Below, piece by piece: positions 1 to 4,005 of a DNA stretch of 4,005 nt. A program made the position numbers and the translations under genes. The notes below the pieces were generated by a model. That model saw only the letters and a program-made list of their open reading frames with translations. It was not told the origin of the DNA and did not search any database. Location: IMG/VR virus record IMGVR_UViG_2778261417_000003; one strand, 5' to 3'. The DNA comes from a virus (Duplodnaviria > Heunggongvirae > Uroviricota > Caudoviricetes). The stretch's first letter is position 1; each line of letters starts with the position of its first letter.

Positions 1-474
1 AACTGTACGATTAAGGGCATGCTGGAGGCGAATCAGGTCAGAGGCGATTTTGTTAAAACAGTATCCAAATCATTCCCGAAGAAGGCTGGTACGTGGGGTA
101 ACACGGAAACACCAAACGGGACGGTTACAGTCACCATAAGCGATGATCATAACTTTGACCGTCAAATCATTATTCCGCCCATTATTTTTAACGGTGTGGC
201 GTATGACGATCCGGGGAGCGGAAATAACCCCGGAGGCACGCGATACACGGGTTATGGTTTTGAAGTTCGCAAAAACGGCGTATTAATCGCATCCAGAGAA
301 ACTAAAGGGGCCATTCCCGGTAGTTACAGTGCAGTTATTGATATGCCGAGTGGTGGTGGTAGCGTCACTCTGGAGTTTAAGATTTTCCAGAAAGGCAATC
401 AGGGGGCAGGCAATATCACCGACTGTACGGTGATTGTGACCAAAAAAGCCGCTTCCGGCATCAGTATTCGTTGA
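1..474 (+). CDS. J: C-terminal fragment (5'-truncated by the window edge) of a J-like tail tip / host-specificity protein (central tail fibre, receptor-binding end)
   Basis: Frame 1 is open from base 1 (aac tgt acg att aag ggc atg ...) to TGA at 472-474, so the ATG at 19 in the ORF track is internal, not the true start. The gene sits immediately upstream of lom and stf, which is the lambda late-region order J-lom-stf. The product is Gly/Thr/Val-rich and looks beta-rich, as expected for a fibre tip domain. Identity as J is by synteny and general resemblance, not a verified alignment. Confidence 0.7.
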   Translation, partial: NCTIKGMLEANQVRGDFVKTVSKSFPKKAGTWGNTETPNGTVTVTISDDHNFDRQIIIPPIIFNGVAYDDPGSGNNPGGTRYTGYGFEVRKNGVLIASRETKGAIPGSYSAVIDMPSGGGSVTLEFKIFQKGNQGAGNITDCTVIVTKKAASGISIR

Positions 475-543: not shown

Positions 544-615
544 ATGCGTAAACTTTATGCCGCCATTTTTTCCGCAGCCATTTGTCTGGCCGTATCCGGT
601 GCGCCTGCATGGGCA
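544..615 (+). other. Predicted signal peptide of Lom (24 aa, cleavage after AWA)
   Basis: Basic N-terminus (MRK), hydrophobic core (LYAAIFSAAICLAVSGA), and an A-x-A motif (AWA) followed by SEHQ. Confidence 0.7.
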
Positions 616-1143
616 TCTGAACATCAGTCCACGCTGAGCGCGGGGTATCTTCATGCCTCGACGAACGTTCCCGGCAGTGATGATCTGAACGGGATTAACG
701 TGAAATACCGTTATGAGTTTACGGACACACTGGGGATGGTGACGTCGTTCAGCTATGCAGGAGACAAGAATCGCCAGCTGACCCATTACAGCGATACCCG
801 CTGGTATGAAGATTCCGTGCGTAACCGCTGGTTCAGCGTGATGGCGGGGCCGTCTGTACGCGTGAATGAATGGTTCAGCGCGTATGCGATGGCAGGCGTG
901 GCTTACAGCCGTGTGTCGACTTTCTCCGGGGATTATCTCCGCGTAACTGACAACAAGGGGAAAACGCACGATGTGCTGACCGGAAGTGATGACGGTCGCC
1001 ACAGCAACACGTCTCTGGCGTGGGGAGCTGGCGTGCAGTTTAACCCGACCGAATCCGTGGCCATTGATATTGCTTATGAAGGCTCCGGCAGTGGCGACTG
1101 GCGCACTGACGGGTTCATCGTGGGTGTTGGTTATAAGTTCTGA
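544..1143 (+). CDS. lom: Lom, an Ail/Lom/PagC-family 8-stranded beta-barrel outer-membrane protein (lysogenic-conversion / virulence-associated)
   Basis: The 199-aa ORF begins MRKLYAAIFSAAICLAVSGAPAWA-SEHQSTLSAGYLHAS..., which closely matches the lambda Lom sequence as I recall it. It has a typical Sec signal peptide with an AWA-SE signal peptidase I site, alternating amphipathic beta-strand segments, and a C-terminal ...VGVGYKF ending in Phe, the usual OMP beta-barrel assembly signature. Position between J and stf matches lambda. Confidence 0.92.
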   Translation: MRKLYAAIFSAAICLAVSGAPAWASEHQSTLSAGYLHASTNVPGSDDLNGINVKYRYEFTDTLGMVTSFSYAGDKNRQLTHYSDTRWYEDSVRNRWFSVMAGPSVRVNEWFSAYAMAGVAYSRVSTFSGDYLRVTDNKGKTHDVLTGSDDGRHSNTSLAWGAGVQFNPTESVAIDIAYEGSGSGDWRTDGFIVGVGYKF

Positions 1144-1207: not shown

Positions 1208-4005
1208 ATGGCAGTAAAGATTTCAGGTGTACTGAAAGACGGCACAGGAAAACCGGTACAGAACTGCACAATCCAGCTGAAAGCAAAACGTAACAGCACC
1301 ACGGTGGTGGTGAACACGCTGGCATCTGAAAATCCGGATGAAGCCGGGCGTTACAGTATGGACGTTGAGTACGGTCAGTACAGCGTTATTCTGTTGGTGG
1401 AGGGATTCCCGCCGTCACATGCCGGGACCATCACCGTGTATGAAGATTCTCAACCCGGTACGCTGAATGATTTTCTCGGTGCCATGACGGAGGATGATGC
1501 CCGTCCGGAGGCACTGCGCCGTTTTGAGCTGATGGTGGAAGAGGTGGCGCGTAACGCGTCCGCGGTGGCACAGAACACGGCAGCCGCGAAGAAATCAGCC
1601 AGCGATGCCAGCACATCAGCCCGTGAGGCGGCAACCCATGCGACTGATGCTGCAGGCTCAGCACGCGCAGCCAGCACGTCAGCCGGACAGGCCGCGTCGT
1701 CGGCTCAGTCAGCGTCTTCCAGCGCAGGAACGGCATCAACAAAGGCCACTGAAGCGGAAAAAAGTGCTGCCGCTGCAGAGTCCTCAAAAAGCGCGGCGGC
1801 CACCAGTGCCGGTGCCGCGAAAACGTCAGAAACGAATGCTGCAGCGTCACAAAAATCAGCAGCCACTTCTGCATCCACTGCGACGACGAAAGCGTCAGAA
1901 GCCGCCACTTCAGCCCGGGATGCGGCGGCCTCCAAAGAGGCGGCAAAATCATCAGAAACGAGCGCAGCCTCGAGCGCCAGCAGCGCAGCTTCCTCGGCAA
2001 CGGCGACAGCAAATTCTGCGAAGGCGGCCAAAACGTCCGAGACGAACGCTAAGTCTTCTGAAACGGCAGCGGGACAGAGTGCCTCAGCTGCGGCAGGCTC
2101 AAAAACAGCGGCTGCGTCGTCTGCCAGCGCCGCGTCAACAAGTGCCGGGCAGGCCTCAGCCAGTGCCACCGCCGCCGGAAAATCGGCAGAAAGCGCCGCA
2201 TCATCCGCTTCAACAGCCACAACGAAGGCTGGCGAAGCCACTGAGCAGGCCAGCGCAGCAGCGAGGTCAGCTTCCGCAGCGAAGACATCCGAAACGAACG
2301 CGAAAGCGTCGGAAACCCGTGCAGAATCCTCAAAAACGGCTGCCGCATCGTCCGCCAGTTCGGCGGCGTCATCGGCATCATCTGCGTCTGCTTCAAAAGA
2401 TGAGGCGACCAGACAGGCGTCAGCAGCGAAGGGCAGCGCCACGACAGCATCCACGAAGGCGACAGAGGCAGCTGGCAGTGCGACGGCGGCAGCACAGAGC
2501 AAAAGTACGGCGGAATCCGCGGCAACGCGCGCCGAGACAGCGGCAAAACGGGCAGAGGATATTGCATCCGCCGTGGCGCTTGAGGATGCGAGCACGACGA
2601 AAAAGGGGATAGTCCAGCTCAGCAGTGCGACCAACAGTACGTCTGAAACGCTGGCGGCAACGCCAAAGGCAGTAAAATCAGCCTATGACAATGCAGAGAA
2701 ACGTCTGCAGAAAGACCAGAACGGCGCTGATATACCCGATAAGGGACGCTTCCTGAACAACCTTAACGCGGTCAGTAAAACAGACTTTGCTGATAAGCGT
2801 GGTATGCGTTATGTGCGGGTTAACGCTCCTGCAGGTGCAACATCTGGAAAATATTACCCTGTTGTTGTTATGCGTTCTGCTGGCTCAGTAAGCGAACTGG
2901 CATCAAGGGTCATTATCACCACGGCAACGCGAACCGCAGGCGATCCGATGAATAACTGCGAGTTTAACGGATTTGTTATGCCTGGTGGCTGGACTGACAG
3001 GGGGCGTTATGCTTATGGAATGTTCTGGCAATATCAAAACAATGAACGAGCCATCCACTCAATAATGATGAGTAATAAGGGCGATGATTTGCGCTCTGTG
3101 TTCTATGTTGATGGCGCTGCTTTCCCTGTTTTTGCGTTTATCGAAGATGGCCTGTCAATATCCGCACCTGGTGCTGATCTCGTTGTTAATGATACGACCT
3201 ATAAGTTTGGTGCAACAAATCCGGCGACTGAATGTATCGCGGCGGACGTTATCCTTGATTTTAAGAGTGGGCGTGGTTTTTATGAGTCTCATTCGTTAAT
3301 CGTTAACGATAACTTGTCGTGCAAAAAACTTTTTGCCACAGACGAAATTGTAGCGCGTGGTGGTAATCAGATTCGAATGATAGGTGGGGAGTATGGTGCA
3401 TTATGGCGTAATGATGGCGCTAAAACTTACCTGCTGCTTACCAATCAAGGTGATGTTTATGGTGGCTGGAATACATTAAGACCGTTTGCTATTGATAACG
3501 CAACCGGCGAGCTGGTTATTGGAACCAAACTGTCCGCAAGTCTGAACGGTAATGCATTAACAGCAACAAAGCTGCAAACACCAAGACTGGTTTCTGGGGT
3601 TGAGTTTGATGGTTCCAGAGATATTACTTTAACCGCCGCGCACGTGGCTGCTTTTGCCAGAAGGGCAACGGATACATATGCCGATGCGGATGGTGGCGTT
3701 CCCTGGAATGCCGAATCAGGCGCTTACAATGTCACCCGCTCTGGCGACAGCTATATTCTGGTTAACTTCTATACCGGAGTCGGAAGTTGCCGGACCCTGC
3801 AGATGAAGGCGCATTACAGAAATGGAGGTCTGTTCTACCGTTCCTCAAGAGATGGCTATGGTTTTGAGGAAGGCTGGGCAGAAGTTTATACCTCGAAAAA
3901 TCTTCCACCAGAAAGCTACCCAGTTGGCGCACCAATCCCGTGGCCATCAGATACCGTTCCGTCTGGTTATGCCCTGATGCAGGGGCAGACTTTTGACAAA
4001 TCTGC
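1208..4005 (+). CDS. stf: Side tail fibre protein Stf, long mosaic form, 3'-truncated by the window edge (at least 932 codons present)
   Basis: Hand translation in frame 2 from ATG 1208 shows no stop codon through base 4005. The N-terminus [62 protein letters not shown]... matches the lambda Stf N-terminus as I recall it. A long Ala/Ser/Thr-rich repeat region follows, then a central module, and the window ends in ...[29 protein letters not shown], which resembles the conserved lambda Stf / T4 gp37-type segment. The ORF track omits it because it lacks a stop in the window. The length and central module resemble the long Stf homologues of E. coli lambdoid prophages (StfR-like) more than lambda Stf itself. 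Confidence 0.9.
1820..2572 (+). repeat. Three imperfect in-frame tandem repeat units inside stf (about 210, 252 and 290 bp), each starting with the motif K-T-S-E-T-N-A
   Basis: The units start at 1820 (aaa acg tca gaa acg aat gct), 2030 (aaa acg tcc gag acg aac gct) and 2282 (aag aca tcc gaa acg aac gcg). Each also carries a recurring SSK-x-AAA-S/T-SA submotif (near 1778, 2093, 2321). Composition is almost entirely Ala/Ser/Thr with scattered Lys/Glu, and very GC-rich at the DNA level. Confidence 0.8.

Follow-up and report, generated by a model that had tools for sequence, protein, structure and literature searches.

The final 80 nucleotides (3926-4005) of the window, which is the whole 4,005-nt stretch of DNA analyzed here, very probably encode the beginning of the collar domain, with which a trimeric fibre receptor-binding tip of the lambda-Stf/T4-gp37 type opens, with the collar start acting as an exchange seam. 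Comparison with phage and prophage sequences supports positions 3917-3926 as the putative joint where tips are exchanged. The seam of fibres of this type is already well described, and nothing about it is new here. Around 1990, the laboratories of Henning, Arber, Haggard-Ljungquist and Hendrix reportedly recognized that lambda stf/tfa are homologous to T4 genes 37/38 and that lambda, P1, P2, Mu and the T-even phages exchange fibre segments horizontally.

Gene content of the window

The window is one entire 4005-bp contig of a draft assembly, NOSH01000082.1 (GCA_002521985.1); the locus found through its Lom protein (L005) has this length and 100% identity to the window. It contains the 3' end of J, a complete lom and an stf gene that is still open at position 4005. 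The contig starts within J, the tail-tip host-specificity gene, whose 3' end (1..474, plus strand) was recognized from the end of its open reading frame at 474 and from the gpJ annotation in all close matches. The complete open reading frame at 544..1143 (plus strand) is lom, encoding an Ail/Lom outer-membrane beta-barrel protein according to the Pfam Ail_Lom assignment of an identical protein, and is flanked on both sides by terminator-like hairpins (493-516 and 1170-1191). The StfR-like side tail fibre gene, stf, occupies 1208..4005 (plus strand) with 932 codons and no stop in translation up to the contig end; its relatives are 1132-1134 aa long. A lambda-type Stf was indicated by the Pfam phage_tail_N domain (PF08400), found over Stf residues 1-134 with 240 bits, and by the order J 3' end, lom and stf inside the window. 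Matches to the whole window were lambdoid prophages and phages with 96-97% identity, annotated as gpJ, Lom and stfR. A 50-kb contig used for comparison (L004) matched the entire window at 99.0% identity, with no differences across 3836-4005. NCBIfam gave no named family for a full-length Stf relative.

Among known systems, the locus resembles that of Ur-lambda, whose Stf (orf-401/orf-314 in lambda PaPa) and Tfa are encoded in the same order, J-lom-stf-tfa, with tfa here being seen in the relatives. The PF08400 N-terminal anchoring domain and an Ala/Ser-rich shaft are held in common, with lambda BLASTN matches over 1016-2116 (87%) and 2421-2676 (80%), and the tfa region of the relatives is mostly 92-100% identical to that of lambda. 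The two fibres differ between the two conserved islands, where 416 residues are found here and a 142-residue distal coiled coil in Ur-lambda, and the variable region of the lambda tip differs from that of the relatives. The E. coli K-12 Rac locus (StfR/TfaR/PinR) was likened to the window through the RefSeq annotation of the closest matches, in which stfR is followed by a tail fibre assembly protein; the PinQ/PinR-type recombinase of the Rac-type locus is present in phage PhiR34_1 and absent from L004 and L001, the latter an approximately 97% identical relative.

Identity of the collar segment

Judged from Pfam, lambda and gp37 matches, the segment at 3926..4005 (plus strand) very probably encodes the opening 26-27 residues of a Collar domain (PF07484) in a receptor-binding tip of the gp37/Stf type. 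Position 1 of the Pfam Collar model corresponds to Stf residue 907, or nucleotide 3926. The window alone aligned with positions 1-26 of the 57 in the model at 20.4 bits (E 4.9e-4); the contig ends inside the domain, which leaves the score under the curated cut-off of 24. The full-length Stf of L001 gave 44.5 bits at residues 907-954, the same start as in the window, and a Collar domain is on record for L004. Lambda itself matched over 3926-4005 with 87.5% identity (70/80 nt; E 6e-19 when the segment was searched against a 2.3-Gb phage collection), so the match to lambda Stf claimed in the original prediction holds, with a start one base from the 3925 given there.

The proposed link to T4 gp37 was likewise borne out. 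The C-terminal 287 aa of the L004 Stf aligned with the crystal structure of the T4 gp37 tip (2XGF) with an E value of 4.8e-86; this alignment opens at SSYPIGAPIPW, chain residue 27, and only its first 27 residues lie inside the window. Furthermore, the T-even phages F2 and AV113 matched at the DNA level (74%) from window positions 3917 and 3913, respectively, to 4005. The L004 Stf is homologous to gp37, which is paired with the chaperone gp38 in T4, from gp37 residue ~811 to the C-terminus, and in both, conserved flanks and HxH motifs enclose a variable middle. In gp37 the conserved flanks span 812-931 and 966-1026 around a variable 932-965, and a co-conserved assembly protein is encoded adjacently (PMC9659904); the gp37 tip and lambda Stf have sequence and structure in common, and both bind OmpC (PMC12617516). 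T4 differs in that everything upstream is unrelated, nucleotide identity is only about 70%, and gp37 belongs to the long tail fibre of a myovirus rather than to a siphovirus side fibre.

When the first 79 residues of the conserved block, which begins with the collar segment, were used as a tblastn query, 475 phage records were returned, including lambda, P2-like Peduovirus, P1-like Punavirus, T4, many Tequatrovirus and Gifsy-1. The segment is thus common to lambda Stf, T4 gp37, P1-like S and P2-like H. Alignment with Mu S and S' revealed shared upstream shaft modules and no collar segment. Of the fibre genes that the original prediction named for alignment (lambda stf, T4 gene 37, Mu S and P2 H), those of lambda and T4 and the P2-like H carry the segment, and Mu S does not.

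Modular shaft upstream of the joint

The first conserved island (2606..2677, plus strand) forms the left edge of the replaced 416-residue segment. Lambda similarity stops here (match end 2676), several phage matches end nearby at 2689 or 2694, and the motif of the island is present in P1-like S as well. Comparison of the 416 residues encoded by 2678-3925 with the lambda shaft segment of 142 residues gave no similarity (best BLASTP E 5.5). The residues preceding the collar had been described as unrelated to lambda, which is correct, but the unrelated stretch spans 416 residues and not roughly 25. Within it, a Gp34_trimer-like domain (PF21446, 96 bits) covers Stf residues 663-762 (3194..3493, plus strand), and residues 713-778 resemble Mu S (G+) with a BLASTP E value of 9e-15. 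The last shaft module before the joint (3548..3907, plus strand) was delimited by DNA matches starting at 3548 or 3560, some of which end at 3867-3877. This module is common to unrelated phages (9g, Ro157c2YLVW and T5-sized phages) and matched Mu S' residues 158-249 (E 6e-23) and PDB 8JU3 (E 1e-14).

Breakpoints and mosaic structure at the collar start

Breakpoints were taken as the ends of BLAST alignments, which may drift by a few bases. Of 5,426 complete E. coli genomes, 3,326 matched the region 3706-4005 used as query. Among 3,436 E. coli records, 1,833 covered at least 80% of this query, while about half of the records matched only from 3917, 3920 or 3925. Sampling the ranking at even intervals gave 28 partial E. 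coli matches, of which 26 started at one of these three positions, with 94-99% identity. The left ends of the partial matches in E. coli genomes thereby define a breakpoint cluster at 3917..3925 (plus strand), the codons Y-P-V directly before the collar. Left ends among phages fell at 3926 in the lambda group, at 3917-3920 in JL22, F2, Gifsy-1 and several P2-sized Salmonella phages, and otherwise at 3913 (AV113), 3938 (SEN4/5 and RE2010) and 3885 (the PhiR29_1 group).

When sequences were anchored on the collar start, at least seven unrelated upstream contexts (lambdoid, P1-like, P2-like and T-even) were found joined to it; identity was near random on the upstream side and 70-100% on the downstream side. 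The window reads YPVGAPIPW at the joint, while the corresponding contexts, with a slash at the joint, are GAGENSAF/PAGAPIPW in lambda, YISPHEL/YPVGAPIPW in the P1-like phage JL22, YTPSEQF/YPPGAPIPW in E. coli 319, SAHPPAEF/YPVGAPIPW in p11A and PhiR29_1, YSDAQIP/YPVGAPIPW in F2, GSANIEAF/PPGVPLPW in the P2-like context and TDIMSS/YPIGAPIPW in T4.

The mosaic pattern was read from a multiple alignment with L004 as the reference. From the joint to about +264, a conserved block of approximately 265 nt was 94-100% identical in E. coli prophages and JL22 and about 70-88% identical in lambda, T4 and P2-like phages. This block, which by analogy to gp37 would comprise the collar and the proximal part of the needle, is followed by a variable stretch from +284 to +507 and then by the conserved stf 3' end and tfa. 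L001 carries the upstream module of the window with a different tip, while L011 and L012 carry a different upstream module with the tip of L004. The upstream modules of L013 and L014 also differ, and across the tip the two diverge from L004 in the same way, suggesting that they share a third tip type. Because L001 and L011-L014 combine them differently, upstream module and tip assort independently across the conserved block. The recombination joint foreseen in the original prediction is supported by the clustered left ends, the multiple contexts and the mosaic combinations; the description of an isolated conserved island did not hold, as the window ends with the first 80 nt of the longer block.

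Tip, tfa and recombinase genes in relatives

The contig itself stops at 4005, and tip type, tfa and invertase were accordingly read from relatives of 97-99% identity. In L004, stf continues for 200 codons (1132 aa in total) and is followed directly by a gene for a 194-aa Caudo_TAP protein (tfa) and then by host genes. The order in L001 is stfR, tfa and IS1, and in PhiR34_1 (L002) stf and tfa are followed by a PinQ/PinR-type serine recombinase gene on the opposite strand; no recombinase follows tfa in L004 or L001. A tfa gene lies directly after stf in L001, L002, L004 and L011-L015. Beyond the window end, L001, L002 and L004 encode the HxH motifs GAHTHS, NHSHS, GAHAHT and SHGHT. The variable tip followed by tfa that had been expected downstream was therefore found, over about 200 more codons, in the 99% relative and in two relatives of about 97%. 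An early stop without tfa, or a lack of similarity to other fibre C-termini, had been named as outcomes that would speak against the prediction; the relatives read on past 4005, tfa is present, and similarity to other fibre C-termini was found.

On the model of the gp37 structure, the tip would consist of the collar, an HxH-motif needle and a variable head, and it would fold with a Tfa/gp38-type chaperone whose gene lies immediately downstream.

Origin of the junction

Conservation of the collar through constraint on its fold alone, with vertical descent and no exchange at the joint, would fit part of the codon data. Over the 26 codons in the window, T4 differs by 16 synonymous and 4 amino-acid-changing codons, F2 by 12 and 4, and lambda by 6 and 3; since the T4 differences are mostly synonymous, they indicate old divergence under protein-level constraint, and the T4 and F2 counts are what long-term purifying selection would produce. 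The E. coli prophages and the P1-like JL22 differ from the window by only 0-2 nt in the collar segment although their upstream sequences are unrelated, which indicates recent DNA transfer. E. coli prophages and a plasmid prophage of the P1-like type have nucleotide identity of 98-100%, synonymous sites included, beside upstream identity at random level, which purifying selection is unable to produce, and vertical descent does not account for upstream modules and tips being combined independently. Descent without exchange is thus very unlikely. It is also exceedingly improbable that an assembly artefact, i.e. a chimeric contig joined through a repeated block, produced the junction at 3917-3926. 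The contig does start inside J and end 80 nt into a block with up to 6 copies per E. coli genome, so that its ends look repeat-limited, but about 1,800 complete E. coli genomes have the upstream module directly joined to the collar, one of them with 100% identity over 3706-4005. The junction is likewise contiguous in L004, and the contig stops in the repeat and does not cross it. A break at a repeat is the usual signature of short-read assembly, and from the start inside J and the end 80 nt into a multi-copy block, the contig probably stops at 4005 because the conserved block is repeated in the source genome. A reading of the 80-nt overlap at the contig end as the assembler k-mer was rejected, as one contig cannot determine it.

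An invertible segment with its invertase had been expected downstream in some lambdoid prophages, and a further rival reading places a Gin/Cin/Pin-type crossover site at or adjoining the joint, with the downstream tip in an invertible segment. The PinQ/PinR-type recombinase after tfa in PhiR34_1 agrees with this reading, as does JL22, in which the collar-tip-tfa cassette (97.5% DNA identity to the window over 3926-4005) lies inside the Cin-invertible C segment as one of two alternatives; furthermore, the lambda position homologous to the P1-like cixL (IQYLGLRE versus LEYLGAGEN) is located about 10 residues upstream of the collar. Searches were made with cixL and cixR of JL22, allowing up to 3 mismatches in the full site and up to 2 in the palindromic core AAACCNNGGTTT. 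The window, the stf-tfa region of L004 and the whole of PhiR34_1 were free of cix matches and of AAACCNNGGTTT core matches. A search for inverted repeats in PhiR34_1 gave short chance pairs and no long repeats, and an inverted alternative tip cassette is absent from that phage. L004 and L001 have no recombinase after tfa. In JL22, inverted repeats of 602 nt (4942-5543 and 9804-10405 of L009) bound the C segment, cixL (TTATCCAATACCTTGGTTTAAGAGAA) is at about 4940-4965 and the collar starts at about 6010, which puts it approximately 1,050 nt from cixL on the downstream side and 460 nt beyond the inverted repeat. The Mu invertible segment differs in that S and S' lack the collar, and the window lacks a crossover site. 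No inverted tip cassette was found at the stf locus of any relative examined. With neither a crossover site nor an inverted tip cassette, it is highly improbable that the joint is or adjoins an invertase site; of the original expectation, the recombinase gene was seen in PhiR34_1 and the invertible segment in no relative examined. There is likewise very little likelihood that some of the joints go back to site-directed events in the distant past, invertase-mediated or otherwise, instead of having arisen at random and passed a filter of protein function, as could be read from the tight 9-nt breakpoint cluster (3917-3925) and from the lambda collar lying about 10 residues past its cixL-homologous position.

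As a side observation from the same searches, one AAACCNNGGTTT core match at chance level is located inside gene J of L004.

Proposed mode of exchange and relation to engineered fibres

The exchange of tips at the collar start is best pictured as the attachment of a tip-plus-tfa cassette, at a domain boundary, to many unrelated shafts. The approximately 265-nt block and the conserved 3' end with tfa are near-identical among coliphages and can therefore supply homology for exchanges, which may take place by homologous recombination inside the conserved block. The sharp left edge may represent older non-homologous joints that would have been kept because they fall between folded domains. The data fit either homologous exchange inside the block or repeated selection of non-homologous joints at the domain boundary.

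The collar start is very probably the natural seam at which coliphages, including siphoviruses, myoviruses and plasmid prophages, exchange tips together with their chaperone, and the host-range-determining part of the present fibre lies beyond the contig end. The motif GAGENS, which precedes the lambda collar, did not itself occur in the papers searched. In the Ur-lambda structure paper the distal coiled coil ends at residue 525, and receptor-binding proteins without homology to lambda Stf were all fused at Stf position 528 (bioRxiv 10.1101/2025.02.28.640725). Counted from the Pfam coordinates, position 528 corresponds to the S in GAGENS and lies five residues ahead of G533 in GAPIPW, and the published fusion point for retargeting lambda adjoins the collar seam.

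Modules and joints within the stf shaft

Besides the collar joint, stf holds a further module joint at window positions 2606-2694. This second joint carries a conserved motif of 24 residues that is also present in lambda and in P1-like S. Similarity to lambda ends at the motif, at 2676, and the matches of several other phages end at the same joint, at 2689/2694.

Farther along the shaft, comparison with the two alternative tail fibre tips of phage Mu yielded a match for each. The variable part of Mu S (G+) resembled Stf residues 713-778 (E 9e-15; window 3344-3541) and that of Mu S' (G-) resembled residues 809-900 (E 6e-23; window 3632-3907), so that pieces of both alternative Mu tips lie in tandem within a single shaft. 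The last shaft module (window 3548-3877) had DNA-level matches in very different phages, namely siphovirus 9g (81%), the 80-kb myovirus Ro157c2YLVW (91%), and two phages of ~108 kb, Cyrano and CMS-2020a (71-78%), whose matches end at 3867-3877, short of the collar. Long antisense and out-of-frame open reading frames of up to 335 aa were found on both strands over the Ala/Ser-rich repetitive shaft at 1600-2634; these look like by-products of biased, repetitive composition and not genes.

Crossover sites and recombinases in related loci

In the P1-like phage JL22, the left crossover site of the invertible C segment, cixL (4940-4965 of its locus, L009), codes for IQYLGLRE. The positional homologue in lambda is LEYLGAGEN (about 6210-6245 of the lambda locus, L003). 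By eye, similarity between lambda and JL22 seems to stop inside the crossover core, a position that in lambda is only about 10 residues ahead of the collar start. In phage PhiR34_1 a PinQ/PinR-type serine recombinase is encoded immediately after tfa (9280-9870 of its locus, L002). No crossover sites or invertible cassette were recognisable for it in this locus, and it is apparently an orphan invertase.

Contig ends and database records

The window corresponds to the entire 4005-bp contig NOSH01000082.1 (GCA_002521985.1), whose left end falls within J and whose right end falls within the repeated collar block. In a sibling assembly, GCA_002521915.1, a 1655-bp contig begins at the same base. The breaks at both window ends look like repeat-induced products of assembly.

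Among records matching the collar segment, the 48,361-bp MW057783.1, labelled "Campylobacter phage CJLB-4", matched at the same identity as phage lambda and at nearly the same coordinates, and is probably a mislabelled record or lambda contamination. In the E. coli records NZ_CP195607.1 and NZ_CP067299.1 the collar-matching stretch is labelled phage terminase large subunit family protein, an odd label for a segment of a tail fibre.
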